DNA from: a virus
Lineage: Duplodnaviria > Caudoviricetes
DNA length: 62,162 bases
Virus record (IMG/VR): IMGVR_UViG_3300027963_002897
Location: 1-62,162 of that record
Direction: 5' to 3' (one strand)
The stretch's first letter is position 1; each line of letters starts with the position of its first letter. Of the stretch, positions 25,124 through 47,563 are shown piece after piece. Position numbers and translations under genes: made by a program. The notes below the pieces were generated by a model. That model saw only the letters and a list, made by a program, of their open reading frames with translations, was not told the DNA's origin and did not search any database.

Positions 25124-25124
25124 A

Positions 25125-28730: not shown

Positions 28731-28737
28731 AATTATA

Positions 28738-29181: not shown

Positions 29182-29186
29182 TATGG

Positions 29187-29204: not shown

Positions 29205-29239
29205 ACAATGGGGGCCTCGAAAGTACCCCCTATAATAAC

Positions 29240-31141: not shown

Positions 31142-31147
31142 ATTTCA

Positions 31148-31165
31148 TCTCCTTATAAAGTAAGA
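31148..31165 (-). promoter_or_regulatory. SD-sequestering hairpin, ROSE-like (copy 2)
   Basis: Identical 18-mer upstream of dnaK. Confidence 0.5.
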
Positions 31166-31223
31166 TCTAATTAGGCTCTATGCCCTGTAATTTGCCATAT
31201 AGTACAAACTACGATTTTATTTA

Positions 31224-31802
31224 TCATTGACGTGCCAAAGGCGAAAACAATTTTCCGTCAAAACTACTGGCAGATCTGAGTTTTTTGTAGACATTTTGGA
31301 CGCCTACTGCTTGATTCCAGGCATCTTCCAACGCATGATGTTTAAGCACCGGAGGACGTTCTGGATTAACACCAATATCAAACAATGTACGGGTATCGCG
31401 AACTTCCCAAAATTGCCAAGGAATAGCTTTACCTATTTTTCTAAATAAATGCTCGCAAATAATGATGTCAAAGCCAGCCCCGTGACTCCATACCCGTTTT
31501 GCGCCCCAGCAAAATTTATACAATTGAGTCATAGCATCTTCAATCGAAATCCTGCCGTCTGGGCTAAACGCTTCATCTTGTGCTGCTTGACTTTGGCTAG
31601 CCCACCAATCTAATGTAGCTTGACTAACTGTGCAACCGTAATGGTCGCAACTGTCAAGGTCAACTTTTACATAGAATTTTTGGCAAGTAGGTTCTTCAAC
31701 ATCCATACCAAAAGGATCAAACTTAACTGCTCCAATTGTGAGTATAGTTGCCGATGGAAGAACATCAAGTGTTTCTAGGTCAATCATTACGTCTGTATTC
31801 AT
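31224..31802 (-). CDS. DEDDh 3'-5' exonuclease
   Basis: MIDLETL, GAGFD, RDTRT, HHALEDA. Confidence 0.88.
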   Translation of the reverse strand: MNTDVMIDLETLDVLPSATILTIGAVKFDPFGMDVEEPTCQKFYVKVDLDSCDHYGCTVSQATLDWWASQSQAAQDEAFSPDGRISIEDAMTQLYKFCWGAKRVWSHGAGFDIIICEHLFRKIGKAIPWQFWEVRDTRTLFDIGVNPERPPVLKHHALEDAWNQAVGVQNVYKKLRSASSFDGKLFSPLARQ

Positions 31803-31808
31803 TATACT

Positions 31809-31837
31809 ATTATACTTTCTCTGTTTAAAACAGTCAA
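31809..31837 (-). promoter_or_regulatory. sigma70-type promoter
   Basis: TTGACT-17 nt-TATAAT. Confidence 0.7.
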
Positions 31838-31840
31838 TGG

Positions 31841-32866
31841 TTATTTTAAAAATACATCATTAATCTGTCTACCGACTTTGATAAATGTTGTACACTTTGA
31901 TAATTGTTTTAAACTTGGAGCACCGACGTATGTACAGGTACTGCGTAGTCCTCCGAGTAAATCCAATACAGTTCGAACAACAGGCCCTTTGTATAATAAC
32001 TCTACTGTTCGACCTTCTGAACTTCTATACTCTGCAACACCGCCACTGTGCTTTTCCATAGCTGTGTCTGAGCTCATTCCGTAAAATGTAATTTTATTGT
32101 CTTTAACTTCGCCCCCACCTTCATCGTGTCCGGCAAGCATACCACCTAACATTACGAAATCAGCGCCTGCCCCGAAAGCCTTAGCAACGTCCCCAGGACA
32201 AGTGCATCCGCCGTCAGCCACAATGTGTCCACCAAGACCGTGAGCGGCATCGGCACATTCAATGATAGCACTAAGCTGTGGGTAGCCCACACCAGTTTGG
32301 ATACGAGTAGTACAAACACTACCAGGGCCAATGCCCACTTTAACAATATCTGCGCCACGTAAGATTAACTCCTGTGTCATGTCTGCGGTAACCACGTTAC
32401 CTGCAATAATTGTATGGCTAGGGAACTTTGCTCTAACTTTAGCAACAAAGTCTCCAAAGTATTCACTGTATCCGTTCGCTACATCGATGCAGATAAACTT
32501 GATACTATACATCCCAGTCAATATAATATTTAATCTATCAAAATCATCATCACTGATGCCGGTACTAACTGCATAGTGTTCATGTTTTCCTTGCTTATTG
32601 AATTTGGCCCAATTATCAATGTCTGTATTATAATTCTTAACTAGGCAGGTAAACATCGAGTGTTCTTGTAATGCAAGAGCCATTTCAAATGTTCCAACAC
32701 CGTCCATGTTAGAGGCCATTACAGGAACGCCTGTCCATTCTTTTTGACTATGTTTGAATTTATACTTACGAGTAAGGTCTACGTTTTTCCTACTAGAAAG
32801 GGTAGATCTTTTTGGACGGATAAGCACATCTTTGAAGTCTAGCTTGACTTCGTCTTCGATACGCAT
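31841..32866 (-). CDS. guaC: GMP reductase
   Basis: [40 protein letters not shown]. Confidence 0.95.
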
Positions 32867-32878
32867 TTGAAACCTTTC

Positions 32879-33118
32879 TTAAAATAATTTTGGCGGCAAT
32901 GATTGTGACTTTAACTGTTTACGCCAACGTGCTTTTGCTGCACCTTTTTTGCGTTTACGTTCAGTTGTTGGTTTTTCGTAGAATTCTTTTTTTCTTAATG
33001 CGTCAAGCACCCCAGATTCTTCAACTTTCTTTTTAAATCGGCGCAGAGCCTGAGTGATGTTTTCATTCTCTTTTAGGGTTACGGTATTGCCTTTTAATCT
33101 ATTCTCAAATTTAGCCAT
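32879..33118 (-). CDS. rpsU: ribosomal protein bS21
   Basis: [13 protein letters not shown]...[14 protein letters not shown]. Confidence 0.92.
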
Positions 33119-33494
33119 TTTGATTTATTACATTCTCCAGTAAGTTATGAATTTGATCAGTATTATATATAGCACAATTATTAGCTGCTGTCAACGATCT
33201 GAGAATTCCAAAATAGTGCGAATTCTTTTGCGCAGCCATATATCCAACAATAATTTCATTTTCGCTATCTGCATTAAAAATAATAAGTTGGCTTTTTAGC
33301 TTTTTATCTAATAGCCAATCGATGTTATCTTTTGAATTCCACATATAAGAAATAATTGTGGTATCTCCAGTTAAACGATTTAGTGCATCTGAAATTAATT
33401 GAGTTTGTTCGCTATTGAGATCTACTAATAATATTCTAATACCGTCTATTAATATATCGTCTGGAGGAGTGACTAAAATAACCTTATCTGTCAT
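33111..33494 (-). CDS. hypothetical protein
   Basis: 127-aa ORF in operon. Confidence 0.75.
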
Positions 33495-33496
33495 TG

Positions 33497-34963
33497 TTAA
33501 TCTTTCTTAACATCTTTGATCCGAGTCCAAATTGTATTTTCGCCTTGTTCAGCATTTTGTATGTAACTTGCTAGTCTTGTCGAGTTTTCTTTATCTGTTG
33601 ATTGCCCACTCGTTCCATCCACGTCGTTACCTTTTTTTTTGAGCTCAACTTGTTCCATGGCCCATTTAGCAGCTTCTTCGGCAGCATCATTATCTGAAAA
33701 GTCTGGTTGAACTTTTAGATATTCGTCCCACGGAAGTACTTTAATGGCACCTCTTTCAAATAGTCGTCTTTGTAATTTTAACGAACTATCTGGATTGTCA
33801 GCCTTCCATAAAGTCATAGCTTCTTTTTCTGAGTCTGCAGCCTTGTCTAATATATCCTGTTCGGATTCTTCTTCCACTGCTTTCTCAGCTTCTTCAATCA
33901 TTCTGTTCCATTGTTCGAGTGGTATACCTTCAACCCCTTCTTCTTGCTTTTCCTCAGGCGCCGTTATATCACCTCCTAGTGCGGTCGGCTGTGTTTCGCT
34001 TGGAACTTCGTCTGTGTGTGTAGGTGTTGTGCCCCAGTCCGGTGCTGGATTATATGTTGCTGAAGGGAATGGCCAAAATGTGCTGGCTGGCGGTGTATCT
34101 AATGCTTCAATTTCTTCTTCTGTAAAAGGACGAGTGTCTTCGTCTTTTGGGGGAACGATACCCATGGCCGCTTGATCTTCTTCTTGTTTGCGGAACCATT
34201 GGAAACTGTATTGGCTAGCTAACAATAGGATAACAGCCAGCGGATCAAATACCATAACAATAATAATGATCACTGCACGTACTGCTTTTTCTAAAAGATT
34301 TTGATCTGGATTATCGCCATATAACAAAGCGGCAATATATTTGATTGGCCCTACTTCTGCTTCTACTTTGCGTACTTCAGCGGCAATTGGGGCACGTTCT
34401 TCATTAAGGGCGGCAATCGCTTTCTGTTCGGACGCAATGTCGGATTGAAGACGTACACGTTCTTTTTGCTGGCTGCGTCTAATAGCAACTGCTTTCTCAG
34501 CACCTTTTTCATCACTGCTTCGACCCATAACTTGGTCCACAGCTTCGTCCATCTGTTTAAGCGCCTTGCGGTTCGCATCTATGTTATCTCTTGCTGTTTT
34601 AATTTTTTCATCGTATATGGCAATCTTACTTTGTACATCACCACTGACAATATTTTGATCTAAATGTGCTTTGCTTAGGTATCCAAAAATACCCATAGAG
34701 GTAATTACCATCAATATAGCAATAGCAGAGATAAGATAGGCCTTGATTGCTCTCGGAGCAATAGTCCAATTAAGTTTTAGCCAAACAGTGGCAACCAGTT
34801 TGCTGACTTCTAGTGCTACTCCCATAATCATAATAGGAACAGCAGCCGCCGCAAAAATGGAAACTAGGCCTGCAACACTATACCATACAGCCACAGCACT
34901 AACACTGAGACCGCTGAATAATGTCAGCCAGGCTATTATCTTATCGCTTGAATTTATTTTCAT
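33497..34963 (-). CDS. membrane protein with coiled coil and acidic tail
   Basis: 3 N-terminal TMs, coiled coil, EVGPIKYIA, FDPLAV TM. Confidence 0.8.
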   Translation of the reverse strand: MKINSSDKIIAWLTLFSGLSVSAVAVWYSVAGLVSIFAAAAVPIMIMGVALEVSKLVATVWLKLNWTIAPRAIKAYLISAIAILMVITSMGIFGYLSKAHLDQNIVSGDVQSKIAIYDEKIKTARDNIDANRKALKQMDEAVDQVMGRSSDEKGAEKAVAIRRSQQKERVRLQSDIASEQKAIAALNEERAPIAAEVRKVEAEVGPIKYIAALLYGDNPDQNLLEKAVRAVIIIIVMVFDPLAVILLLASQYSFQWFRKQEEDQAAMGIVPPKDEDTRPFTEEEIEALDTPPASTFWPFPSATYNPAPDWGTTPTHTDEVPSETQPTALGGDITAPEEKQEEGVEGIPLEQWNRMIEEAEKAVEEESEQDILDKAADSEKEAMTLWKADNPDSSLKLQRRLFERGAIKVLPWDEYLKVQPDFSDNDAAEEAAKWAMEQVELKKKGNDVDGTSGQSTDKENSTRLASYIQNAEQGENTIWTRIKDVKKD

Positions 34964-34966
34964 GAA

Positions 34967-35410
34967 CTAATATTTATCGTTAACCCACTGCCATCTATTG
35001 TTAATGTCATCAAAACAGGCAGTTGCGGTCATTGTTTTTTCCACGTTGTATGCAATAGCCTGTATATGTACTCTCCGACAATATCCATTACCATTAGGCC
35101 ATGTCATTACCGGTACTGCAAAACCACTCGCATCGTCTTGATACCACGATACCTTTTGTCCGTTGTCGGCAAACATAATTGCATGATTGATCGACGAGTG
35201 ATATGATTCGTTCTGTACAGCACTTAAAGTTTTAAACCAACCAAAACTAAAATCAGATACACGATTAATAAATCCGCCTGCACGATATTCGAAGAACCTA
35301 GGCTCATTCGCTTCTACCGCGGCAGCGTTAAAACTAACGGCCAGCAGTATTAACGATTTCCCAACTACCGTCCGGCTTTTGGCAACTAATGCCTTTGCGT
35401 TGAACATCAT
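34967..35410 (-). CDS. secreted protein, 17-kDa surface-antigen-like
   Basis: V-x-W...G...YCRR...TAC...W pattern after a signal-like segment. Confidence 0.6.
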   Translation of the reverse strand: MMFNAKALVAKSRTVVGKSLILLAVSFNAAAVEANEPRFFEYRAGGFINRVSDFSFGWFKTLSAVQNESYHSSINHAIMFADNGQKVSWYQDDASGFAVPVMTWPNGNGYCRRVHIQAIAYNVEKTMTATACFDDINNRWQWVNDKY

Positions 35411-35690
35411 AGTTTCCTTGTTTCATCCAATATTGAAATTCACCGCAGTTAGCAGCCATCCCTAATCGAACTTCAGCTAATCGCTTAATTTGATCGTCTG
35501 TACACTCAACTGTGGTTTCGCTGTTTACACGTTCACTATTTTGAGTCTTGATGGTTTGACTGGTATGGCAGTACTGTGGCTTTTGTGCCTGTACCTTTGG
35601 CGCTGACGAACATCCTGATAGTAATGATAATACACCCACCATTACAATTATCAATAGCCAAAGATATTCCTTGACGCGATATGGATGCAT
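35334..35690 (-). CDS. lipoprotein
   Basis: Lipobox LSGC, four further Cys. Confidence 0.7.
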   Translation of the reverse strand: MHPYRVKEYLWLLIIVMVGVLSLLSGCSSAPKVQAQKPQYCHTSQTIKTQNSERVNSETTVECTDDQIKRLAEVRLGMAANCGEFQYWMKQGNYDVQRKGISCQKPDGSWEIVNTAGR

Positions 35691-36163
35691 TATTGTTTTA
35701 CTTTCGCTTCTTCAATCAATTGATCAAATACCGCTTTCTTCATTTCAAGACGAACATAAGTGTAATGACGTCCACTCATTGTGAAATGACCTTTTTCGGA
35801 TTTTACATGACGGCGGATAGCAGTATCTTGAACTTTATACGAAATCAGTGTACGAGTAGTTTTCTTGTCGTCCTTGATATCGATAGTAGTTTCGCTATTA
35901 ACAGTACCGTTGATGCGTTTTGCAAAGTTGTTCATTGCAATTGCATCCATTTGTTCTTCTGCGGCTTGTGCATAAGATGATTCGCCTGCGCCACAAGCAT
36001 AGACATAATCTTCTTTCCACCAAAACCAACCTTTGACGCCTTCTTGAGCGCAATCCTGATACCAGCTTGGCTGAGCATAAGTTTTACGATCTTGAATGTC
36101 TTTCATTCCGGCGCAACCAACCAGTGCTGCCATTAGCGGAGCAATAAGTAGAGCCTTTTTCAT
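35690..36163 (-). CDS. lipoprotein, LPP20-like
   Basis: Lipobox LVGC, PSWY, GAGES. Confidence 0.7.
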   Translation of the reverse strand: MKKALLIAPLMAALVGCAGMKDIQDRKTYAQPSWYQDCAQEGVKGWFWWKEDYVYACGAGESSYAQAAEEQMDAIAMNNFAKRINGTVNSETTIDIKDDKKTTRTLISYKVQDTAIRRHVKSEKGHFTMSGRHYTYVRLEMKKAVFDQLIEEAKVKQ

Positions 36164-36202
36164 AATGTGCCTTTCTGTGTGTGAAATATTAACAACAACT
36201 AT

Positions 36203-36231
36203 AGTATAGCATCACCACTGTCCGAAGTCAA
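36203..36231 (-). promoter_or_regulatory. sigma70-type promoter
   Basis: TTGACT-17 nt-TATACT. Confidence 0.7.
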
Positions 36232-36248
36232 TGGTGATGTTTACCAAA

Positions 36249-36566
36249 TTATTTGAAGAAGATCAATGCCAACATTACTGACTGAACAATAAATCCAAAT
36301 CCAATAGTAATCAAGTTAAGCATGTCCTTTTGAACTGCGGCTTTGATAAAGAGCAAAGATAGAGCTGCCCAAACTAGCAGTACCAAATCAATTCCAGGAG
36401 CACGATCAGTTAATCCGCTCATGATTGCCAAAAATGTAGGAATAGTTGATGCATGTAATACCATTACAGCCATCCAACCCAACGTCTCGGAAGAGATGTG
36501 CGAGAACTTGTTTGCTACAAAATCTTTGAACTTCGTGATATCAAAATTAAAATTAAATTTTTCCAT
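36249..36566 (-). CDS. small 3-TM membrane protein
   Basis: Three hydrophobic helices; coupled to the hydrolase gene. Confidence 0.7.
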   Translation of the reverse strand: MEKFNFNFDITKFKDFVANKFSHISSETLGWMAVMVLHASTIPTFLAIMSGLTDRAPGIDLVLLVWAALSLLFIKAAVQKDMLNLITIGFGFIVQSVMLALIFFK

Positions 36567-37119
36567 TTTGCGAACTTACCTTTCCTCTGTAAAAAATATG
36601 GTTGCCAATCTTGCCTATCTTTTCAAAACCCCATCTTGGATTCACATAGTCTGCATGATAGTATAATGCATCTTTGAGAACATCAAGTTTGAAGCCTTCT
36701 AAAAGAACTTTTTTAGCAACAGCCATAGACTCGTCATAAGCCGCGGCATTTATTGGACGTGTTTTAGTAGCAGAATCGCAGAACCATGAGAACTGGCACA
36801 CAACTCTTTCCATTATAACACTCTTTTGATAAATTACCCCGCATACATCCGTGGCAAACTTGCCCGAATTAACGCGATTCATTACAACCTGTGCTACTGC
36901 AACTTTACCTTCGAAGGGCTCATAACCTGCTTCTCGATAAATGTTCATGGCCATACAATCAAGTTGTTTTTCGCGGGTTTTGATTGATACAACGTCGGAA
37001 GAATAAAGTCCACCATTATCCTTTAACAGCTGAAATTTTGTGGTAGTGATTGACTGTACTAATACAGCTACTACCATGATACCTATAAACATAGATATCA
37101 AACGTATAGTTCTATCCAT
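36553..37119 (-). CDS. cell wall hydrolase SleB/CwlJ (Hydrolase_2)
   Basis: N-terminal TM; CMAMNIYREA, AVAQVVMNRV, CQFSW, IGNHIFY. Confidence 0.92.
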   Translation of the reverse strand: MDRTIRLISMFIGIMVVAVLVQSITTTKFQLLKDNGGLYSSDVVSIKTREKQLDCMAMNIYREAGYEPFEGKVAVAQVVMNRVNSGKFATDVCGVIYQKSVIMERVVCQFSWFCDSATKTRPINAAAYDESMAVAKKVLLEGFKLDVLKDALYYHADYVNPRWGFEKIGKIGNHIFYRGKVSSQNGKI

Positions 37120-37134
37120 AGTGTTTTTCTCCTT

Positions 37135-37372
37135 TCACTTGGTGTGATCAAACAACAATCACATTACATTAAGGGAGTAAACTTCACGAGGCTCAATTAA
37201 AGAACCCTGGGTTCGTGTAGTTGTCTCCATTAGCCACCACAGCTCATAACTTGTGGTACCTTTGGCGAACTTGGCTTCCCGAATCTCACGGGTTTCTCAT
37301 TGGCCAAGACTCGCGGATCAGTATCAAAACTTGTTACTAACACTGACCTACTATCTTGTTTCTTTGCGAAAC
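37135..37372 (-). ncRNA. putative structured 5' leader of the cell wall hydrolase
   Basis: ORF-free ~240 nt with five or more hairpins ending next to the AAGGAG SD. Confidence 0.5.
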
Positions 37373-37419
37373 GTATAATATATAGTCGATAAATTGGATT
37401 CATATACTAAAATATGGCT

Positions 37420-37812
37420 CTAACGTCTCATTTTGGAAATATCTACAGCTTGTTCACTGCTAAACACCGGTACCGCATTACTTTTATGCATAGTAGCAAT
37501 TCCCTTTACCATAGTTCCTGTATAAACTTTAGGTGCTGGCATTGTACAAGCCCCGCCTGTAAATGGCAAACTTGGGTGTTTGACATCAGTACCAAAACGT
37601 GAATATGGTTTATTATCTGGTTTCCAAACTTCGGCAGTCAGAGCACGTTTGCGTTTCTTTTCTTCTGCTTCAATGCCCCAACGCTTCATAAACTCTTTCC
37701 AAGATTCTTCCTGTTCGCGAGCTTTGCGGGCGTGATCTGCTGAAGCAAATTTTTTCTTACCCTTTTTCTTGCCTGTGGTTGAAAGCCACGGACCTTCTAA
37801 GTGCATACTCAA
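37420..37812 (-). CDS. T4-like phage hypothetical protein
   Basis: YTG...KGIATMHKSNAVPVF...DISKMRR; TTG start with AGGAG SD. Confidence 0.8.
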   Translation of the reverse strand: MSMHLEGPWLSTTGKKKGKKKFASADHARKAREQEESWKEFMKRWGIEAEEKKRKRALTAEVWKPDNKPYSRFGTDVKHPSLPFTGGACTMPAPKVYTGTMVKGIATMHKSNAVPVFSSEQAVDISKMRR

Positions 37813-37864
37813 AATAGACTCCTAACTTGTTTACTATAGAACTATTATACAGTCTTTTGTTAAA

Positions 37865-38152
37865 TTAGTCAACCACTGCGTAGATCTCGTCTTCTCGTAG
37901 AACCAAAAGATCTTCACCTTCAATTTTAACAGCTAACCCTGCATTTGGATAATACATCACTGTGTCATCGGCCTTGACTGCTATAGGAATAACCACTCCT
38001 TCTTTGGTTGTTCGTCCTTCACCGACTCGCAACACCAGTCCTTTTGGAGTATGAACATCATCACCTGTAAGCACAACTAGTCCACCTGCAGTTGTTCTAT
38101 CACTTTCAATTTTTCTAATTATTACACGGTCGCCCAAAACTGATACAATCAT
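37865..38152 (-). CDS. groES: co-chaperonin GroES
   Basis: LGDRVII, TAGGL mobile loop, VGEG, LREDEI. Confidence 0.88.
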   Translation of the reverse strand: MIVSVLGDRVIIRKIESDRTTAGGLVVLTGDDVHTPKGLVLRVGEGRTTKEGVVIPIAVKADDTVMYYPNAGLAVKIEGEDLLVLREDEIYAVVD

Positions 38153-38162
38153 ATATTTTCCT

Positions 38163-38573
38163 TTATTTTGTTTTATTGGCTAATTCTTTATAACCATTAT
38201 AAGTCGGATGAACTGTATCCGAACTGCGTTCAACTCCTCGAGCATCGATAACCCAGTCGTTGTATTTTCGAGCAACTTCCCAAACTGCCTTGCGTTTTGT
38301 TTCTTTAATGTTTGGAATGATCCAATAAACTCGATCGGCAGTGACCAGTTGTCGCAATGTATCCAATTCTTCAAATGTGTTGATTTTTTCAGTGTCATTG
38401 CTGCCTAGACTGATGATAACATTCTTTGCTGCGGTAGCACCTTTGGTATAGAACACATGCCTATTAACATAGTCGTAACTGTTGATACCCGATTTAGCAT
38501 AGGTTACACATTCCTTACGGATCTGACCTACGCCTACTGCAAGGCTGTCGCCTAGAATCAAACATTCTAACAT
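38163..38573 (-). CDS. SGNH/GDSL hydrolase
   Basis: GDSL, LGSND, DTVHP; start reset to ATG with GGAGG SD. Confidence 0.85.
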   Translation of the reverse strand: MLECLILGDSLAVGVGQIRKECVTYAKSGINSYDYVNRHVFYTKGATAAKNVIISLGSNDTEKINTFEELDTLRQLVTADRVYWIIPNIKETKRKAVWEVARKYNDWVIDARGVERSSDTVHPTYNGYKELANKTK

Positions 38574-38604
38574 TAGTCCTCCGAAAATTTCAATCATAAA
38601 ACAT

Positions 38605-38633
38605 ATTATAGCATCGTTATAAATTTTAGTCAA
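38605..38633 (-). promoter_or_regulatory. sigma70-type promoter
   Basis: TTGACT-17 nt-TATAAT. Confidence 0.75.
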
Positions 38634-38634
38634 G

Positions 38635-38659
38635 AAAAAGCCCACCGAAGTGGGCCTTT
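38635..38659 (-). terminator. intrinsic terminator of pqqA
   Basis: GCCCAC TTCG GTGGGC TTTTT. Confidence 0.8.
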
Positions 38660-38676
38660 AATATGTTAAGAACAAA

Positions 38677-38748
38677 TTACTTGTTCATTACATACATAGT
38701 TACTTCAAAACCAAAGCGCATTTCTGTAGCTGCTGGTGTTGTCCACAT
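38677..38748 (-). CDS. pqqA: pyrroloquinoline quinone precursor peptide (23 aa, not in ORF track)
   Basis: MWTTPAATEMRFGFEVTMYVMNK*, W-x-x-P and E-x-x-x-Y core, GAGGAG SD, own terminator. Confidence 0.92.
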   Translation of the reverse strand: MWTTPAATEMRFGFEVTMYVMNK

Positions 38749-38973
38749 AGTATTTCTCCTCGTTTATAAAAGTCTTGCAGTTTATAAACTCATATCAGTG
38801 GAGATATCGATCGTTTGATAAAGGTCCACCTTGAGGCCTATTAGTACTACGGCAACGGTTGTCTGTTGTCCTTAGTACTTATATATTATTATATGACAAC
38901 CCCACCTAAAAGTCATACGTAAAATCATTAAAAGGAGTTAGTGGTAGTACTGGTTACGGATTCCAGCGATACC

Positions 38974-39984
38974 TTATCTTGTACCCGATTTTTCTATTAA
39001 GTTGTCTTTAAATATTTGCCAAGCACGTTCCCAAGTCCAACGACTGCTGCCTTCTAATACTCGATTACGGTCAAGTAACAATGCAGAGTCAACGGCCTGC
39101 TTTAGATCTTCGTTCATACAGCCAGTAATACCTTCATCCACTACATCTAATGGACCTTGGCATGGATATGCAGCCACTGGAGTGCCACAGGCCATGGCTT
39201 CAATCATGACTAGTCCGAACGTTTCCCAACGACTAGGGAACACAAAGCAATCTGCCATGGCAAAGTATTTGGCTAGTTCTTCACCACGCTTGGCTCCTAC
39301 AAATTTTACATCAGGATACTGTGCCTTATACTCTTCCAGCATAGGACCATCGCCTACCATGAACTTGACACCCTCGTAAGGCATTTCAAAAAACGCTTCT
39401 AAGTTCTTTTCTTTACTTACACGGCTAACGCATACTAATATAGGACCATTTACCACTGTGCCAGTACGCTGACTTGGATTAAATATAGCACGGTCAACAC
39501 CGCGTGTCCATGGAATAACATCTCCATCGAATCCGTGGGCTTGTAATTCTTTAACCATGGTGTCGGTAGTGGTCAACACCTTGCCTGCGTGTTTGTGGAA
39601 CCAGCGTACTAGAGGCCAAGTAAGTGCCTCAGGGATTCCAAATAGGGCTCTAAGTCCTTCAGGGAACTTAGTATGATAAGCAGTATTGTACCGAAGATTA
39701 TGTTTTGAAAGATATTTTCTAGCAGACAGACCAACAGGACCCTCTGTGGCAATATGGTAATAATCCGCACCTGCCGCCTCAATCTTCTTGCCCATCTGCC
39801 TGGTAAGGGCAATCTTGACTTCGTTGTAGCCAGGACAATCAAAGTAGCGGAAGTCCCCGGGAGTAATGTAAACAACGCTATAACCATCCAGAACCGCACA
39901 AGCCTCGATGTTTTTGTAAGTTGTGACAACGCCATTGATCTGCTCCGGTAAGTTATCTGTAATAATTAAAATCTTTTTTGTCAT
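38974..39984 (-). CDS. GT4 glycosyltransferase (Agt-like)
   Basis: INGVVTT, HIATEGPVG, YHTKFPE, SRVSKEKN, ETFGLVMIEA. Confidence 0.9.
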   Translation of the reverse strand: MTKKILIITDNLPEQINGVVTTYKNIEACAVLDGYSVVYITPGDFRYFDCPGYNEVKIALTRQMGKKIEAAGADYYHIATEGPVGLSARKYLSKHNLRYNTAYHTKFPEGLRALFGIPEALTWPLVRWFHKHAGKVLTTTDTMVKELQAHGFDGDVIPWTRGVDRAIFNPSQRTGTVVNGPILVCVSRVSKEKNLEAFFEMPYEGVKFMVGDGPMLEEYKAQYPDVKFVGAKRGEELAKYFAMADCFVFPSRWETFGLVMIEAMACGTPVAAYPCQGPLDVVDEGITGCMNEDLKQAVDSALLLDRNRVLEGSSRWTWERAWQIFKDNLIEKSGTR

Positions 39985-40871
39985 TGAATCTTTAACTTTA
40001 TAAAATCTACAATACGCTGTGCCATATCCTGCCCACAGTACCGGTCCATACCTTCAAATCCTGGACTTGAATTAGCTTCACATATCTTGTAGCCGTCCTT
40101 ATCAAACAACAAGTCAACTCCTGCTATTTGTAGACCTAGCACACGAGCTGTTTCTCTTGCAAGATAATCCACTTCGTCTGTTATCTCAAACAGTTCAGCA
40201 GTGCCGCCTTGACTGATGTTGGCACGAAAATCGCCCTCAACACCTATACGTTTCATTGCCACTACACTTTTGCCACCAATGACCCACACACGCAGATCAG
40301 TACCAGGCTGTGCATCCACAAACTCCTGTATGATCATGGTTTTCTTTAGGCTGATACTGCTCAACAAACTCATAAGGCTTACAAAGTCTTTTTTGGTTTG
40401 GCATAGGTGTACTGTCTTGCCTTTGCTACCGCTGGTGGCTTTGACCACACAGGGAAACCCTATTTCTTTTTCAATAAGCTCGATGTCAACATCACCGTTG
40501 ACCAGTATGGTTTTTGGGATTGGCAAGTTCTCTTTGACCAACAACTGGCTGGTTAGTAACTTGTCTGATACACGACTTATGCTGTCGGCATCGTTGATCA
40601 CAGGTATACCAAACTTTTCAATTTGACGCATTACCGAACGTGTAAAATAGTTGGTGCCTGCACCTGTTCTGCTTAAGACTAGGTCAGGTAATTCAATTTT
40701 TTCGCCTTTGTATCGTATACTCTTGGCACTGCTACGACTGACAATAATGTCAAAATATTTGGGTTCAAGAACTTGTCCACGCAAGCCGTTCTTTTTTAAA
40801 CATGCCAATAATTGTTGATTTTCGTATGCATCAATATTTGAAGCATAGTGCAATATCCATACTTGTTTCAT
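39981..40871 (-). CDS. RimK-family ATP-grasp ligase
   Basis: DKLL, IPKT, GFPCVVK, IIQEF, DLRV, FRANISQGG, EANSSPG. Confidence 0.9.
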   Translation of the reverse strand: MKQVWILHYASNIDAYENQQLLACLKKNGLRGQVLEPKYFDIIVSRSSAKSIRYKGEKIELPDLVLSRTGAGTNYFTRSVMRQIEKFGIPVINDADSISRVSDKLLTSQLLVKENLPIPKTILVNGDVDIELIEKEIGFPCVVKATSGSKGKTVHLCQTKKDFVSLMSLLSSISLKKTMIIQEFVDAQPGTDLRVWVIGGKSVVAMKRIGVEGDFRANISQGGTAELFEITDEVDYLARETARVLGLQIAGVDLLFDKDGYKICEANSSPGFEGMDRYCGQDMAQRIVDFIKLKIQ

Positions 40872-41023
40872 TACTCAGCCGTTTCTTCAAAGTTTTCGTC
40901 GATTTCTAAATCAAAATCTTCAGGTAGGTCTTCTTCGTCTATGGGTGCTACTACTTCAGTCTGAGTAGGTGGGTTAAAAGCACTGAACCAAGCCAACGGA
41001 TTGAAAATATTAAACCACATCAT
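40871..41023 (-). CDS. small acidic peptide (50 aa, not in ORF track)
   Basis: MMWFNIFNPLAWFSAFNPPTQTEVVAPIDEEDLPEDFDLEIDENFEETAE*, AGGAG SD, TAATG overlap with the RimK gene. Confidence 0.65.
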   Translation of the reverse strand: MMWFNIFNPLAWFSAFNPPTQTEVVAPIDEEDLPEDFDLEIDENFEETAE

Positions 41024-41771
41024 CTTTCTCCTTTGTCCATGTAATTATCTCCCAGACTCCATCATGGTGCTCAACTAAGGCTGTGCATGACTCTACCCAA
41101 TCCCCGTCATTCATATAGATGATGCCGTCTATGGTTTTTATTTCAGCGTGATGAATGTGTCCACATATCACACCATCATAGCCACGCTTCTTGCAGTAGC
41201 CTGCTAGATTTTTTTCGAATTGAAACATAAAGTCACTGGCCTTCTTGACTCTATGCTTGAGATATTTACTAAGGCTCCAGTACCCGAAGCCTAATTTATG
41301 TCGTATCCAATTAAACTTGCTGTTCCAGTCTAACACTAGGTCGTATAACTTATCACCCAGAAATGCAAGCCAAGGAGCAAGACGAGTAATACCGTCAAAT
41401 AAATCACCATGTGTAACCAAATAGTGTTTGCCATCTGCACCTATATGTTCTGTTTGATTTTGTATCTCAATAAGACCAAATGAAAAACCATAAGGTATCA
41501 TTGGTCTTAAGAATTCGTCGTGATTGCCGGCGACGAATACCACTCGTGTGCCACGCTTGGCGTGTCCTAGTACACGGCGTACTACGTTGGTGTGCGATTG
41601 TTTCCAACGCCATTTGTTTTGTTGGATCTTCCAGGCATCAATGATATCACCAACGAGGTAGAGAGTGTCGCATGAATTATGCTTGAGAAAATTATTGAGC
41701 TGTTCCGCCTTGCAGTCTTTTGTACCTAAGTGGACGTCACTCACAAAAATACTACGGTAAGTTTTTTGCAT
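41010..41771 (-). CDS. LpxH-like metallophosphoesterase, PlcP phospholipase C-like
   Basis: SDVHLG, GDIID, GNHD, HGD, GHIH, NDGDWVESCTAL. Confidence 0.88.
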   Translation of the reverse strand: MQKTYRSIFVSDVHLGTKDCKAEQLNNFLKHNSCDTLYLVGDIIDAWKIQQNKWRWKQSHTNVVRRVLGHAKRGTRVVFVAGNHDEFLRPMIPYGFSFGLIEIQNQTEHIGADGKHYLVTHGDLFDGITRLAPWLAFLGDKLYDLVLDWNSKFNWIRHKLGFGYWSLSKYLKHRVKKASDFMFQFEKNLAGYCKKRGYDGVICGHIHHAEIKTIDGIIYMNDGDWVESCTALVEHHDGVWEIITWTKEKDDVV

Positions 41772-41823
41772 AGCAATATTTACCGTAGTATCGCTGTTTA
41801 AAGATTACGTTTGTGTTACGAAA

Positions 41824-41982
41824 CTAAATCCTTACTAGTACCCACTTAGCTGTAAATGGTTTACCTTCGGCCTTATGTTTCAGTATCTTAGCGAACTCTT
41901 TTTTACGAAGTTCGGAAACCGTTTCTGTATCATGGTCGACGCAAGCCCTGTACAGTTTAGCTAATAGCTTTTTCTGTTTCAT
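41824..41982 (-). CDS. small basic protein (52 aa, not in ORF track)
   Basis: MKQKKLLAKLYRAC..., AGGAGG SD. Confidence 0.6.
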   Translation of the reverse strand: MKQKKLLAKLYRACVDHDTETVSELRKKEFAKILKHKAEGKPFTAKWVLVRI

Positions 41983-42006
41983 GGTTGTGTCCTCCTTATA
42001 CTTTAT

Positions 42007-42513
42007 TTAACTGTTTAATACCTTTGCAACACTATTCATTACACTGGCAATACGACCAATGTCACGAAGCTGTTCTACTGTGTAGCCTTCTGTCTTTAGA
42101 GTTTCGTAATGTGCTTTAACACAGAAATGACACTTGCCCACAATACTAGCTGCCAAACTAAATGCTTCAAAGTTTGATTTAGTAGTTCCACCGTGACTAG
42201 CAATAGCATTCATACGTAAGCCAGCTGGTAGGCCTTTTAGAGCAGGATCATCAGCCATTTCGACATATGGATACCATACATTGTTCTGTGCCATAATGCT
42301 TGCGGCAGTCATTGCTGACTCTGCATACACCGGAGCATCTGCTAACAAGATGCTTAATACCTTACCGTTACCAGTTGCAGCCAATGCGGCTACAGCACAA
42401 CCCATAGCAACATCAGCATCTAATGTACTACGCAAAAGAACAGCATCAAGATTTAACTTGGTGTCCTTTGCGTAGTCTGGCAACGCTTCTTTGATAGCGT
42501 CATTGAATGCCAT
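42007..42513 (-). CDS. ahpD: alkyl hydroperoxide reductase AhpD
   Basis: LPDYAKD, MAQNNVWY, CHFCVKAH. Confidence 0.92.
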   Translation of the reverse strand: MAFNDAIKEALPDYAKDTKLNLDAVLLRSTLDADVAMGCAVAALAATGNGKVLSILLADAPVYAESAMTAASIMAQNNVWYPYVEMADDPALKGLPAGLRMNAIASHGGTTKSNFEAFSLAASIVGKCHFCVKAHYETLKTEGYTVEQLRDIGRIASVMNSVAKVLNS

Positions 42514-43070
42514 TATAGTGTCTCTCCACCAACTGTACGGTTACAAGCGCAAAGCTCGCCAGTTTGTAGCGCATCTAATACACGAAGTGTTTCTTCTGGG
42601 CTACGACCAACGTTCAAGTTGTTAACAGTTACGTGTTGGATAACGTTCTCTGGATCAACGATGAATGTTGCGCGAAGTGCGGCACCTGCTGGAGCGTAGA
42701 ACACACCAAGCTGTTCGATCAAGCTCAAGTTGTCGCCAGTTTCTGGATTGTAACGCTGTGTGTCAGCAAATTGTGTGTGAGTAATTTTCTTTAAATCAGC
42801 GTGGGCATTTTGCCAGCTAACTTTACAGAACTCGTTGTCTGTTGAACCTGTGAGCAATACAGCGTCACGGTCAGCAAAGTCACCTGCTAGTTTGTCATAG
42901 GCTACAATTTCTGTAGGGCAAACGAATGTGAAATCCTTTGGATAGTAAACGATTACTTTCCACTTGCCAGCAAATGACTCATCTGTAATTTCAAAGAAAG
43001 CATCTTCTGGCTGTCCTGGCTTAACTCCAGTAACTGCGAATTTTTCTAATTTATGTCCAACTGTTTTCAT
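42513..43070 (-). CDS. ahpC: peroxiredoxin AhpC
   Basis: YPKDFTFVCPTEI, GR, ELCAC. Confidence 0.95.
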   Translation of the reverse strand: MKTVGHKLEKFAVTGVKPGQPEDAFFEITDESFAGKWKVIVYYPKDFTFVCPTEIVAYDKLAGDFADRDAVLLTGSTDNEFCKVSWQNAHADLKKITHTQFADTQRYNPETGDNLSLIEQLGVFYAPAGAALRATFIVDPENVIQHVTVNNLNVGRSPEETLRVLDALQTGELCACNRTVGGETL

Positions 43071-43204
43071 ATCTTCTCCTTGTGTGTGTTGAAAACTTCT
43101 ACAACTCTGTGTTGTATGTGTATATTATATATCCTATTAAAAACTAAAATCAATAGGTTTTTGCAATAATTATTTCTATAACGCTAATTGAAAAAATCAA
43201 TAAC

Positions 43205-43227
43205 AAAAGGACCCGAAGGTCCTTTTT
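43205..43227 (-). terminator. intrinsic terminator
   Basis: AGGACC TTCG GGTCCT TTT. Confidence 0.75.
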
Positions 43228-43247
43228 GTGTTTTGAATCTAATTAGA

Positions 43248-43808
43248 TTAGAAACGATGGATGTATCCAACTTTAGTGATGTTTTGCTCACTGTCGCCAC
43301 GTTGTTGATCGTAACCAACATAGACAGTGCTTGTCTTGTTTAGGTCGTAACCTAACTTGCTGCGCCATGTGCGAGTTGTATCATTACGATTGTCACTGAA
43401 TGTATCTTGGAAACGATATCCAACACTCAATGCCAAACCTGGCACAAATGTAATTGGAGCAACAACACCTGGCTCAACTGAATAGTAGCTGTAACCACTT
43501 GCACCGCTAACAAACTTTTCACCAACTGCTACGCGAGTGTAAGCAGAAACTGGACCAACTGGAACAGCGCCTGTTAAACCTGCTTCATAGCGGGTGGACA
43601 AAACGTTAGTATTGTCAGTGCGATAGTTTTTGACTACGATATCACCTGCAAAGTTTTTATTAATTGATTCTTTTACTCCCAATTCATAAACTCTTTGATC
43701 TGCGGTGGTTCCTTGGCCATTGGCATTTTGAGCTTCGATACGAACCTCTGCCGCTGTTGCTGTAAATGCTGCCAGCGCCAAGATAGTCGCTAATGTAATT
43801 TTCTTCAT
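43248..43808 (-). CDS. outer membrane beta-barrel protein
   Basis: Signal peptide, alternating beta strands, terminal Y-x-x-x-F. Confidence 0.8.
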   Translation of the reverse strand: MKKITLATILALAAFTATAAEVRIEAQNANGQGTTADQRVYELGVKESINKNFAGDIVVKNYRTDNTNVLSTRYEAGLTGAVPVGPVSAYTRVAVGEKFVSGASGYSYYSVEPGVVAPITFVPGLALSVGYRFQDTFSDNRNDTTRTWRSKLGYDLNKTSTVYVGYDQQRGDSEQNITKVGYIHRF

Positions 43809-43879
43809 TTTTAATTCCTTTTATAATAATGACTTAACGTCATTAAACAGTATATAGCGTATTGCTGATAAAAGTCAAG

Positions 43880-43906
43880 AAAAAGCGGCATTTTAAGCCG
43901 CTTTTT
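43880..43906 (-). terminator. terminator of the tmRNA gene
   Basis: AAAAAGCGGC-loop-GCCGCTTTTT. Confidence 0.8.
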
Positions 43907-44190
43907 GGTGGTTTCTGTTACGAGGTATATCCTACCCTAAGCAGTGTTTAGGCTGCTAATGCGTATTCGCTTGAGTTTGCGTTTACTTGTTTTACGCTGA
44001 TAACGTCAGTCGTCTCTCGTGTTGCCGTCTCTACTATCTACCCCTGTCGAAACCATGGCAGGCCCATTATGAAGTATACTCACGTTTCTGATGTCTCTGT
44101 TGGCTATGTGCCAACCGAATATACTTTATGGTGGACCTGGCGGGAGTCGAACCCGCGTCCAGAAGTCCTTCGCTTTGAAGGGATTACAAC
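43907..44190 (-). ncRNA. ssrA: two-piece (circularly permuted) tmRNA
   Basis: Acceptor piece with T arm and CAGGTCC-ACCA (ends 44129) precedes coding piece GGGCCTG (starts 44065); G3-U70; tag ANSSEYALAA* at 43948-43980. Confidence 0.9.
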
Positions 44191-44210
44191 AATTCTTTTA
44201 TTTAACCAAC

Positions 44211-44414
44211 TTACGCTGGATAAATGTTTGCAGCCTGCTTGCCTTTGGGGCCTTGCACAACTTCAAAACTTACGTTTTGATTTTCTTGCAAGACTTTAAA
44301 ACCTGAAGTCTGAATTGCAGAGTAATGAGCAAATAAATCCTCACCACCTTCGTCTGGAGTAATAAACCCAAAACCTTTGGTTTCATTAAACCATTTTACT
44401 TTACCTGTTGCCAT
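44211..44414 (-). CDS. cold shock protein
   Basis: [21 protein letters not shown]. Confidence 0.95.
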
Positions 44415-44468
44415 TTACTTATTTTCCTTAGTTATTAAAATTGCTGTGTGTAGTATATTTAAACATCT

Positions 44469-44771
44469 TTAGGCTGTGATGTCAACCTCTTTCTTTTCTT
44501 TTTGGACTAACTTGTCCGGTCTTATAGGTTCTAGCCACGTGTCTGGAATATATGCTTTTGGCGTATCGCCGTACATGTTGCTCAATCCAAATTCAGTAGA
44601 TATCCACCAAAAATGATCGGTAATCTGTGCTTTGCACGAAACGCCACGAAAATCAAATTCTTCACCCTGTTTGAAATGTCCAATGTATTTTTCTACCAAT
44701 ACAGTTTTACCTATATTGCTAGGACGTAGACTCATTATAATTTTGGCTAGATCGCCTTTTTCACATTTCAT
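44469..44771 (-). CDS. hypothetical protein
   Basis: C-x-x-GDLA...PDTWLEPIRP. Confidence 0.75.
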   Translation of the reverse strand: MKCEKGDLAKIIMSLRPSNIGKTVLVEKYIGHFKQGEEFDFRGVSCKAQITDHFWWISTEFGLSNMYGDTPKAYIPDTWLEPIRPDKLVQKEKKEVDITA

Positions 44772-45424
44772 AGAGTTAATGTATTAATTGCACCGCCTGA
44801 GGTGCCTCTTGGGAATAGATTAAATGCTAGAGTATATCTAGTTTTGCCTTTAACATTTGGATCTACTGAGTGGGATACCTGAGATGGGAATAACAACAGA
44901 TCATTTTTCAAAGGCTGCATTCCAAAATTTTGAATATTGTAGATATTCATTTTACTTTGATCTTCGGAATCTTCAAAATTGTGACCAATTTCAATCAACG
45001 GATTGAATAGATTCATATGAGTCCTATCTTTATGGAATATGATGTCTCCGGTATTTTGTTCAATTTCGATATAGTAAACTCCGCTGAGTATACTGCTGCC
45101 GTGCCAGTGTGGTTGACTAAAATCATCTTTGTAGTGTCGATTGACCCAACTGTTTTCCATTTCAAAAGTCATGACTTTTTTACAGTCTAAATAATCATAG
45201 ACAAAGTGATTGACTTTGTTCATGATCTTTTCTTTCAATAGTGCAAGCTCTGGACAATTGAGAATATATTTGTTTACTGAATAATCTCCATTGCCGTAAG
45301 GCATACGTTCAAATTCTGTATTCTCAATAAAGTCTCTCATATCTTTTGCTAGACTTCCGAGATTGGTTCTATACAGCGGAGTAGCAAATAACGGTATTAC
45401 TTCAAAATTGTTTACTTGAGCCAT
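44768..45424 (-). CDS. putative 2OG-Fe(II) oxygenase (TIGR02466-like)
   Basis: SWVN, HWH, LSGVYY, FPSQVSHSV, RYTLAFN. Confidence 0.85.
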   Translation of the reverse strand: MAQVNNFEVIPLFATPLYRTNLGSLAKDMRDFIENTEFERMPYGNGDYSVNKYILNCPELALLKEKIMNKVNHFVYDYLDCKKVMTFEMENSWVNRHYKDDFSQPHWHGSSILSGVYYIEIEQNTGDIIFHKDRTHMNLFNPLIEIGHNFEDSEDQSKMNIYNIQNFGMQPLKNDLLLFPSQVSHSVDPNVKGKTRYTLAFNLFPRGTSGGAINTLTL

Positions 45425-45822
45425 CCTACCTTTTCTCCATTGTCAATTCTTCGTTGGTGTTCTTCAACACTCCCAGGAAAACGCCAAGCCCAAATGGCAA
45501 CAAGGGCCATAAACATTGCAGTATAAACAATCCCACGTGTAGGTACTCCTCCAGTAAACATTAATATCAAACTCAAACTCATCATGCCTAGCATAAAAAA
45601 TTTCATCTTAGTAGGAAATACACGCTTCTCACCCCAATTGGTCAAGAACGGTCCAAACAACGGATGATTATAAATCCAGCGATGCATACGCTCACTGCCT
45701 TTGCTAAAGCAATAGGCTGCAAACACCACGAACGGTGAATAAGGAATGCCCGGAGTAATGACTCCGATGTATGCCATGCCTAAGGATAAAAATCCTAGGC
45801 AAGTCCAAAGAAATTTTTTCAT
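45412..45822 (-). CDS. YbaN/DUF454 family membrane protein
   Basis: IGVITPGIP...CFSKGSER...HPLFGP. Confidence 0.85.
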   Translation of the reverse strand: MKKFLWTCLGFLSLGMAYIGVITPGIPYSPFVVFAAYCFSKGSERMHRWIYNHPLFGPFLTNWGEKRVFPTKMKFFMLGMMSLSLILMFTGGVPTRGIVYTAMFMALVAIWAWRFPGSVEEHQRRIDNGEKVGWLK

Positions 45823-45827
45823 GTTTA

Positions 45828-46856
45828 TTATTCCGATAGTTGAATCAAGCCATATCCGTTGGCTTTTGTTTTTGTTTCGCGTTTGTCGTTTAAGAACGTC
45901 ATTACCTTTGTTGGGTCTTTCGGAGACCTTTGAGGAACAGCAAAACTAATATGTATCCAAGGCAGTCCCGATCCTGTCGTTTTGTATTCTAACAACAATT
46001 GATCAAATGGCACATTATCACGGACCCATACGGCTATGTTGAAGTATTCTGATTTAGGAACTCCGCGAAACTGGATGTCTGCTGCTTGTCCTTTTCCGTG
46101 TTGAGTTGTTGAATCTTCTCTATAGGTGTTGGTAATAAATGCGTTTGGATATTTTTTCCTAATTGGTTCGATAGTATTGATAGCCAAAAGTTTTAAATTT
46201 TCAACTATGGTTTTAGTAGGTAATCCAGATGCACTAGGAGCAGATACAGGATGATCGAAAACTACACCCGGAGTTCTAGTCAACTGCCCAAGGGTGTAAT
46301 TTGGACTTAGTTGAAGACTGTTAGGGAACGTAGTTCCTACATCGCCCGCTGAAGTTGTTGCAGGTGCTTTGTTTTTAGTAACACTACCGGAAGTTTTTCC
46401 TGTAGCCTTAACAGCATCTTCTCTTTCAACTTCGCGAGCATCTACAGTGCCAGATTTGGCCTTGGAACTAAAATAAGCCGAACCTGGGCCACTACCGGCC
46501 CTTGGTCCACCACGAGATGCAGGTGGTGTATCGGCTTCTGCCTCATCTCCGCTTACTACAGCTCGAACACTAGGAGTATCAGTGTCGACATCAGTACCAA
46601 CAAATACATTTCCACTGCCGCCTACACGCACCTTGCCATCGTTATCTGAGTTGTCTGTAAAGTTAACAGGCTTCTTATGAGCAAAGACATTTCCACTACC
46701 GTTCGCAGTAGTGGTGGTTCCTGGGCTATATCGTACTAGACTGGTGTCAACACTGGCCAACAGGTCATTAGCATATACTGTGCTGTTGCCATCAGTGTTA
46801 GCGACCTTTCCGCCGCCACTGTTTGAATCTGTTAGGCGTTGGATTGGTTTTACCAT
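45828..46856 (-). CDS. PAAR-like domain fused to peptidase M15
   Basis: N-terminal RLTD, STVYAN, GSGNVF x2; C-terminal LSPNYTL, QHGKGQAADI, WIHIS. Confidence 0.75.
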   Translation of the reverse strand: MVKPIQRLTDSNSGGGKVANTDGNSTVYANDLLASVDTSLVRYSPGTTTTANGSGNVFAHKKPVNFTDNSDNDGKVRVGGSGNVFVGTDVDTDTPSVRAVVSGDEAEADTPPASRGGPRAGSGPGSAYFSSKAKSGTVDAREVEREDAVKATGKTSGSVTKNKAPATTSAGDVGTTFPNSLQLSPNYTLGQLTRTPGVVFDHPVSAPSASGLPTKTIVENLKLLAINTIEPIRKKYPNAFITNTYREDSTTQHGKGQAADIQFRGVPKSEYFNIAVWVRDNVPFDQLLLEYKTTGSGLPWIHISFAVPQRSPKDPTKVMTFLNDKRETKTKANGYGLIQLSE

Positions 46857-46857
46857 G

Positions 46858-47148
46858 TTAGGCTAATTTAATACCTGTGGTACCTTGAAGGTAGCTGTTT
46901 GAAAATTCTTTTTCAGTAGCATCGATAATTGTCACAGTACCTTTTGACAATTTTACATCTTTTTCATTGCTGACTGTGAATAGGTATGGAGCCATACCGA
47001 GTCCTTGTTGTCCCATGGTCAACACCATAGGTCTGTTTAATTTATAATACTCGCCGGTTTCTTCAACTAACTTGGCTATAATTTCTTCTCCAGAAGTTAG
47101 TTTGATTGTAACTACTTCACCGGGTGCTGCACCTTTGTCTATTAACAT
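46858..47148 (-). CDS. small Sm-like fold phage protein
   Basis: IKLTSGEEIIAKL pattern. Confidence 0.6.
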   Translation of the reverse strand: MLIDKGAAPGEVVTIKLTSGEEIIAKLVEETGEYYKLNRPMVLTMGQQGLGMAPYLFTVSNEKDVKLSKGTVTIIDATEKEFSNSYLQGTTGIKLA

Positions 47149-47149
47149 A

Positions 47150-47374: not shown

Positions 47375-47389
47375 ACTTCTTTCCTTTAC

Positions 47390-47557: not shown

Positions 47558-47563
47558 AATATA

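Follow-up and report, generated by a model that had tools for sequence, protein, structure and literature searches.

Methylophilaceae, represented in lakes by LD28/Methylopumilus and at sea by OM43, rank among the main consumers of methanol and other C1 compounds. Their genomes contain 3 to 12 copies of pqqA, according to the available text of Beck et al. 2014 (PMC4109929). A virus-encoded PqqA has also been published: PqqA and methanol dehydrogenase are reported, in the available text, from Lake Baikal phages of Methylophilaceae (Coutinho et al. 2020, Microbiome 8:163, PMC7678222). This is the only paper found in a literature search that linked pqqA to Methylophilaceae and viruses; PMC3728764 says nothing about pqq, PMC5120137 mentions pqqF/G and no other pqq genes, and the available text of the paper on the cultured phage Melnitz (PMC9004378) mentions PQQ only as a medium supplement (1 nM in the OM43 medium) and pqqA not at all. 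The central idea, a virus-encoded PqqA, having been published in 2020, the present locus is of limited surprise in that respect. What is new here is a pqqA-specific box together with a covarying leader hairpin, both common to some host and phage copies.

The locus lies in a window of 62,162 bp, the whole of an IMG/VR virus record that CheckV rates as 18% complete, which suggests a full genome of about 345 kb. A pqqA gene and the elements around it are arranged as follows on the minus strand:

38919..38930, minus strand: pqqA box TAATGATTTTAC, from the upstream-region alignment, at about -49 to -38 from the predicted transcript start
38888..38893, minus strand: -10 hexamer TATAAT, from the promoter scan, 37 nt after the start of the pqqA box
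38844..38878, minus strand: stem-loop GTACTA...TAGTAC, from the fold, starting about 3 nt past the predicted transcript start
38787..38840, minus strand: leader hairpin R1, a 6-bp helix GGTGGA/TCCACT plus two outer pairs, from a covariance model (54.7 bits)
38756..38761, minus strand: Shine-Dalgarno sequence GAGGAG, 7 nt 5' of the ATG, from the sequence
38677..38748, minus strand: pqqA coding sequence, 23 codons plus TAA, from the reading frame and the TIGR02107 and PF08042 profiles
38632..38659, minus strand: intrinsic terminator AAAGGCCCAC-TTCG-GTGGGCTTT plus T-run, from the sequence and the terminator scan
38633-38605, minus strand: promoter of the next gene, TTGACT-17-TATAAT (11/12 matches, with a TG extension), from the promoter scan, immediately after the pqqA terminator

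The gene begins with ATG and encodes the 23-aa peptide MWTTPAATEMRFGFEVTMYVMNK, exactly the translation that the original prediction had given for a small reading frame with the PqqA E-x-x-x-Y core. That prediction proposed checks against TIGR02107 and viral databases, and both were run. The peptide matches the whole of TIGR02107 (NCBIfam equivalog; model positions 1-21 of 21) with a score of 38.8 bits against a cut-off of 20 (E 5.6e-10). Its match to PF08042 also spans the full model (positions 1-19 of 19) and scores 40.3 bits against a cut-off of 21.1 (E 3e-10). It is the single PqqA site found by a six-frame profile search of the whole record. Its 23 residues fall within the PqqA range of about 20-40 aa with Glu-x-x-x-Tyr, and the sequence reads W2-x-x-P5 followed by the Glu15-x-x-x-Tyr19 core (E15-V-T-M-Y19). 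From established knowledge of the PQQ pathway, we take Glu15 and Tyr19 to be the residues that are cross-linked to each other and turned into PQQ; the available text of PMC7678222 cites the PqqE and PqqD work behind this role of Glu and Tyr. The gene has what translation requires, namely an ATG, GAGGAG at 7 nt and an open frame with a pattern of purifying selection. The exact window peptide is found on 622 contigs of the protein collection; it is the commonest host form (81 of 131 bacterial copies) and also makes up 22 of 112 viral copies. The likeness to Methylophilaceae PqqA noted in the original prediction is borne out by a back-translated pattern search of bacterial genomes. The window gene is a true, intact PqqA of the Methylophilaceae peptide type.

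The gene is framed by its own expression signals. The Shine-Dalgarno sequence, predicted to be strong, is GAGGAG at 38761-38756, and a similar site precedes pqqA at 110 of 115 viral and 114 of 115 bacterial loci. The promoter claim stands in part: the sigma-70-like site ATGACT-17-TATAAT is present at 38916-38888 on the minus strand, 140 nt upstream, with 10 of 12 matches. However, the same scan finds 20 promoter-like sites in 4 kb where 8.8 are expected, so this site alone is weak evidence, and its '-35' hexamer ATGACT is probably incidental because the conserved element at that place is the pqqA-specific box common to host genes. The predicted terminator is there as a GC hairpin with a T-run, GCCCAC-TTCG-GTGGGC followed by TTTTTCTT on the minus strand (38659-38632), 17 nt past the stop codon; the terminator scan reported the plus-strand version only, and the minus-strand version was taken from the sequence. 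Within 50 nt downstream of pqqA, terminator-like sites occur at 106 of the 115 bacterial loci and at 49 of the 115 viral ones, versus 20 of 605 random places. The fold of the whole 266-nt pqqA stretch, terminator included, has a z of -3.3, and the stem-loop GTACTA...TAGTAC has no counterpart in the other loci of the upstream alignment. A GT4 glycosyltransferase gene and a GDSL-like gene flank pqqA, which forms a separate transcription unit because the GDSL-like gene has its own strong promoter right after the pqqA terminator. The GDSL-like gene probably starts at the ATG at 38573 on the minus strand (MLECLILGDS...), behind GGAGG; the GTG of its longest reading frame, which would overlap the pqqA terminator, is probably not the start.

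The pqqA box, with the consensus T[A/C]ATGA[A/T]TTTAC placed 37 nt before the -10 hexamer, sits just beyond the interval 38635-38915 to which the original prediction was confined. A strict 16-nt form of it has six matches in five whole Methylophilaceae genomes, all six at 112-130 nt upstream of pqqA, and a reversed control pattern has none in the same five genomes. With up to one mismatch allowed, the 12-mer occurs between -210 and -50 at 28 of the 117 viral pqqA loci and at 40 of the 120 bacterial ones; control windows are positive in 10 of 585 cases for the viral set and 15 of 600 for the bacterial set. The spacing of 37 nt from box to -10 hexamer is the commonest among the viral cases (14 of 28, window included). 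Among the 40 bacterial loci, a -10-like hexamer lies at +60 from the box start in 17, and a second TCATGA-like site lies at +23 in 29, again 37 nt before the -10 hexamer. Phage P19250A has a perfect box 90 nt upstream of pqqA. Located at about -49 to -38, the box is in a position compatible with a putative activator site overlapping the -35 region. As a general promoter of the window phage the box was rejected, the 19-nt motif occurring once in the window at up to three mismatches. No published description of the box or of the leader hairpin was found in a search that covered papers other than Ge et al. 2015 on Methylovorus pqqA promoters, a study cited in the available text of PMC9851590.

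Between the box and the gene, hairpin R1 combines its helix with a conserved GAC and CTCTC, in and beside the loop; the CTCTC next to R1 has been considered as a possible anti-Shine-Dalgarno element. The covariance model was built from 7 viral loci, and its match at 38787..38840 is the only one in the window. When the window and 99 viral loci were searched with this model by cmsearch, 12 matches resulted, and 100 more loci gave six further matches. Three of these six are bacterial, at about 41 bits; the match at L196 is placed between a box and the ATG of a pqqA copy. Across 12 sequences, 97.9% of cells are paired and 3 of 8 pairs show compensatory changes, while the covariation score is 0.53 versus 0.17 when shuffled (reached in 0 of 500 shuffles), in an alignment that is fitted to the model and so favours the score. 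Loci bearing R1 are those with a longer distance from box to ATG. Rfam gives no match at the pqqA leader, either at gathering scores or at E<=10, and its weak matches all lie on the terminator. Because the box and the leader hairpin are common to phage and host copies, the sequences suggest that the phage copy may be read through the host's own pqqA control. Phages may even carry pqqA as whole host regulatory cassettes (with the box 37 nt before the -10 hexamer and the hairpin in a subset) rather than as a bare coding sequence, a proposal that is put forward tentatively and with slightly more doubt than confidence.

Four freshwater metatranscriptome runs were examined over 36000-42000 of the window. 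RNA contigs at pqqA span only 38675-38760; they stop at 38675 and at 38749 or 38760, are unlike the sequence beyond, and carry two fixed differences. Because they diverge on both sides and differ at these two positions, they derive from pqqA genes at other loci. No RNA contig of the four runs covers the leader specific to the phage or the terminator flank, which proves nothing. Elsewhere in 36000-42000, contigs from the RNA libraries match with 0-2 differences, and DNA carry-over is possible.

The record has the features of a viral genome. Nearly all its reading frames are on the minus strand, and PHROG matches include virion structural proteins (phrog_14154, phrog_11854), a tail-spike-like protein, endolysins and the exonuclease phrog_298; pqqA itself is present in cultured phages and in seven viral genomes that are at least 90% complete. 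The G+C content is about 40%, and the window stretch is present in DNA runs of many studies, with freshwater or lake water as the label. A megablast of window positions 30000-48000 against 50,697 phage records gave no match. Genes of cellular type identified with Pfam encode DnaK, GroES, Hsp20, ClpP, ClpS, RNR, AhpC, a CMD-family protein and curli CsgG/CsgF.

Several other gene sets of the record also lie on the minus strand. A heme oxygenase gene adjoins a ferredoxin-dependent bilin reductase gene (27176-28394), a pair that is known from cyanophages and is found here in a phage of a non-photosynthetic host. The chaperone and protease set of ClpS, Hsp20, DnaK (855 bits), GroES and ClpP occupies 28391-31141, 37865-38152 and 9016-9588. 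A tRNA array at 1-7325 comprises 23 tRNA genes (ARAGORN) and one cut at the window end (Rfam), covering most amino acids; genes for 2OG-Fe(II) oxygenases and for a tryptophan-halogenase homologue of 536 aa (358 bits) break it up. A tmRNA gene at 43857-44242 has the tag ANSSEYALAA and scores 154 bits with the betaproteobacterial model and 141 bits with the permuted-tmRNA model; ARAGORN calls it permuted, and a two-piece tmRNA is reported in Melnitz-type phages in the available text of PMC9004378. A curli-like module at 18870-25565 encodes CsgF, a CsgG that carries an SH3 domain at its C terminus, and two proteins with curlin repeats; a FecR-like protein and a CHASE2-adenylate/guanylate cyclase of 704 aa accompany them. 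Melnitz is reported without csgA/B (PMC9004378, available text), whereas the window phage has the curlin-repeat proteins.

The absence of pqqB-E from the window, also part of the original prediction, holds: six-frame searches of the record give no match for PqqB, PqqC, PqqD or PqqE, and among 74 window reading frames scanned there is neither a Pqq family member nor a PQQ dehydrogenase, methanol dehydrogenase included. With only about 18% of the genome represented, a dehydrogenase or further pqq genes could sit outside the record. The window pqqA is not adjacent to pqqBCDE as in the classical operon; this does not exclude it from PqqA, because most Methylophilaceae copies are also orphans. The bacterial genomes were searched, as one-genome-per-species contigs, with a pattern back-translated from nearly the whole peptide, which gave at least 123 loci. 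Among 80 matches listed, 69 are titled Methylophilaceae, Methylophilales, OM43, Methylotenera, Methylophilus, Methylopumilus or Methylobacillus, nine are broadly named and two come from one MAG labelled Acidovorax. The five Methylophilaceae genomes have 1-5 pqqA matches each, mostly distant from the single pqqC, a number consistent with the figure in PMC4109929. As a positive control pqqC was detected in 4 of these 5 genomes; the host family has both pqqC and copies identical to the phage peptide.

A tblastn search with the pqqA peptide against the same 50,697 phage records gives 12 hits. Nine of the ten matches at E <= 2e-4 are records of cultured phages with Methylophilales or Methylophilaceae as the recorded host: P19250A (100% identity), MEP301 and Venkman (91%), MEP401/402 (83%) and four Melnitz records (73%). 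The tenth is an uncultured Caudoviricetes record (96% identity) with no recorded host, and the two weak hits (E 0.09) are to a metagenomic Acinetobacter phage. In the search listing, five of the nine cultured-phage records have no annotation under the match and the four Melnitz records have 'hypothetical protein'. The GenBank record of P19250A has no feature at the pqqA site (L245:3001-3069), and in Melnitz (L246:4001-4066) a 'hypothetical protein' is called on the opposite strand over an unannotated pqqA.

In viral contigs, the pattern W-x2-P-x3-[D/E]-x3-G-x-E-V-T-x-Y gives at least 120 IMG/VR loci, on at least 119 contigs with pqqA. All 119 loci found again by regular expression are short PqqA reading frames, in which Met stands 0-3 residues ahead of the Trp and the stop follows 4-5 residues past the Tyr; L064, a locus that only blastn matched, is outside this number. 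In most viral loci, nucleotide similarity to the window is limited to the Shine-Dalgarno sequence and the coding sequence, and the flanking genes differ. A minority have another peptide type, for example ...[FY]-x-D-[ILV]-R-F-G-F-E-V-T-M-Y-I... (L022, L062, L077, L081, L114 and others); phages of other PQQ-using hosts may therefore carry pqqA too. In 50 other pqqA-bearing viral records, seven of which are at least 90% complete, PqqE above the cut-off is found in 0/50 and PqqC in 0/50.

Two viral contigs are close to the window. G002 (17.9 kb) is syntenic with window positions 31.8-48.6 kb at 45-89% amino-acid identity and also has pqqA. G017 (72 kb, rated 20% complete, 36.5% G+C) shares RNR (80%) and DnaK (71%) with the window, as well as the curli genes, the FecR-like protein and the CHASE2 cyclase. 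Between its FecR-like and CHASE2 cyclase genes, G017 has an insertion that encodes a dehydrogenase, a formate-dehydrogenase alpha-like protein, a thioredoxin, PqqA and a SoxYZ fusion. The dehydrogenase (624 aa, 608 bits on TIGR03075) is XoxF/MxaF-like and lies 6 kb from pqqA; G017 is the one record among 51 pqqA-bearing viral records with a PQQ dehydrogenase of the methanol/ethanol family. The C1 set of G017 (L251:13989-18783, L252:1467-2789) is contained within 9 kb, and its formate-dehydrogenase alpha-like molybdoenzyme is 946 aa long. The likeness to G002 and G017 places the window in a lineage of large phages with C1-oxidation genes.

A methylotroph host, probably of the Methylophilaceae, is strongly backed by these comparisons; such a host had been proposed from pqqA itself, and both the recorded hosts of the cultured phages and the methanol dehydrogenase of G017 speak for it. 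DnaK, at 68-73% identity throughout 301 genomes of the Methylopumilus order (a sample that included the unpublished G081, G260 and G349, with matches bearing no taxon labels), gave no host signal. The host assignment therefore rests on pqqA, the cultured phages and the relatives.

The favoured reading, which we hold to be very probable, is that the window contains a functional stand-alone pqqA of a large uncultured freshwater phage of Methylophilaceae that sustains the PQQ supply and methanol oxidation of its host. After infection, pqqA would be transcribed as its own short unit, comprising the box, the -10 hexamer, a leader of about 130 nt, the 23 codons and the terminator, and host RNA polymerase would read it with the same factor that acts at host orphan pqqA promoters. 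Going by established PQQ biochemistry, host PqqD would then bind the peptide, host PqqE would cross-link Glu15 and Tyr19, and host PqqF/G, PqqB and PqqC would complete PQQ. One peptide would be spent per PQQ made, and the PQQ would be exported to periplasmic XoxF/MxaF methanol dehydrogenases. The phage could thereby maintain or raise the only stoichiometric substrate of the pathway as host transcription falls, and methanol oxidation, thus sustained, would provide energy and C1 units for phage replication. The classification of pqqA as a putative auxiliary metabolic gene is supported by the sequence evidence, and we infer that its expression may boost methanol oxidation during infection. Counting against a role in PqqA supply, PqqB and PqqC are possibly rate-limiting in PQQ synthesis, as suggested in the available text of PMC9851590.

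The PQQ might instead serve other ends, such as other periplasmic quinoproteins or redox and antioxidant protection of the infected cell. AhpC, the CMD-family protein, Hsp20, DnaK, GroES and ClpP/ClpS in the window would fit such a use, as would the lack of a methanol dehydrogenase in the window and its rarity among pqqA-bearing viral records. XoxF and MxaF are, however, the main PQQ enzymes of obligate and specialised methylotrophs, to which the peptide type and the cultured carriers are confined among the matches listed, and the sole relative with a PQQ enzyme has a dehydrogenase of the methanol/ethanol family; other uses are thus improbable. Even less is to be expected of a decoy or regulatory peptide that floods PqqD/PqqE, or acts as a signal, and so alters host PQQ synthesis or its regulation. 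Nothing specific favours it beyond the general point that a chaperone could be titrated by a small peptide made from a strong ribosome-binding site. The window peptide, by contrast, matches the commonest host peptide at every residue and, with Glu15 and Tyr19 retained, is a normal substrate rather than a dead-end analogue. We regard a decoy as very unlikely.

Two further explanations do without a function of the peptide in the phage. The gene could be kept as DNA homology, a target for integration or recombination, or as a neutral passenger on a host fragment: viral and host pqqA have a high nucleotide identity (a median of 87-90% across 69 nt), and several targets are dispersed over host genomes. 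Yet no tyrosine integrase occurs in 51 pqqA-bearing viral records, in a search restricted to tyrosine integrases whose control matched 14 of 14 genomes. Variation is concentrated at third codon positions: across 104 distinct viral sequences of 23 codons, mean entropy by codon position is 0.28, 0.22 and 0.85. Positions 1 and 2 are in part fixed by the search pattern, but unconstrained codons show the same bias. The start codon, the Shine-Dalgarno sequence (110/115) and the full frame are retained, the cassette with its box persists while flanking genes vary among viral lineages, and pqqA is carried by cultured phages that we take to be virulent. Maintenance as mere DNA is on these grounds highly improbable. 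Nor is there much to be said for a mis-binned piece of Methylophilaceae chromosome or plasmid whose pqqA is a host orphan copy, a highly unlikely origin despite the many cellular-looking genes (DnaK, ClpP, curli, RNR, AhpC). The sequence is an IMG/VR virus record with one-strand genes, 23 tRNAs, a tmRNA and PHROG structural, tail-spike-like, endolysin and exonuclease matches; its DnaK is merely 68-73% identical to that of any of the 301 genomes of the order; and curli CsgGF, tmRNA and the tRNA array form the module set of Melnitz-type myophages described in the available text of PMC9004378.

If the preferred reading of a functional phage pqqA is correct, a gene that keeps the PQQ supply of Methylophilaceae going would tie infection to C1 turnover. 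Should the box be the site of an activator of PQQ synthesis in Methylophilaceae, the phage would plug its pqqA into the host methanol/PQQ regulon, and box and hairpin would then offer a handle for finding the regulator and a signature for methylotroph phages in metagenomes; in any case both are testable leads to the control of PQQ synthesis in this family. Gene callers miss the gene, and most cultured phages of Methylophilales and Methylophilaceae have no annotation for it; a 23-codon peptide of the exact window type looks usable as a host marker for viral contigs.

Among known systems, the orphan pqqA genes of Methylophilaceae (PMC4109929) resemble the window gene in their identical commonest peptide, monocistronic arrangement, Shine-Dalgarno sequence, intrinsic terminator and upstream box and, in some copies, the leader hairpin. 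In hosts, most of the promoters carry a pair of boxes spaced by 23 nt, and the -10 hexamer is at +60 from the distal one, whereas the window has one box at 37 nt; the window leader is also longer (about 130 nt) and has an extra 5' stem-loop. The T4-like Baikal phages of population VP_266, as described in the available text of PMC7678222, are alike in gene, host family, proposed role in methanol oxidation and freshwater habitat, a likeness drawn from the published description; their contigs have 35% G+C versus about 40% in the window. A methanol dehydrogenase is reported for them (PMC7678222, available text) but is missing from the window, although the relative G017 has one. The cultured phages P19250A, Venkman, MEP301, MEP401/402 and Melnitz encode a 23-aa peptide 73-100% identical to that of the window; these cultured phages have genomes of 35-141 kb, and the window genome is much larger by the CheckV estimate. 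Cyanophage psbA is the classical auxiliary metabolic gene. By analogy, pqqA may be like genes of the psbA type in that the phage would re-supply a rapidly consumed part of the host energy machinery; however, the psbA product is a subunit, whereas PqqA is a consumable biosynthetic substrate that needs five or six host enzymes.
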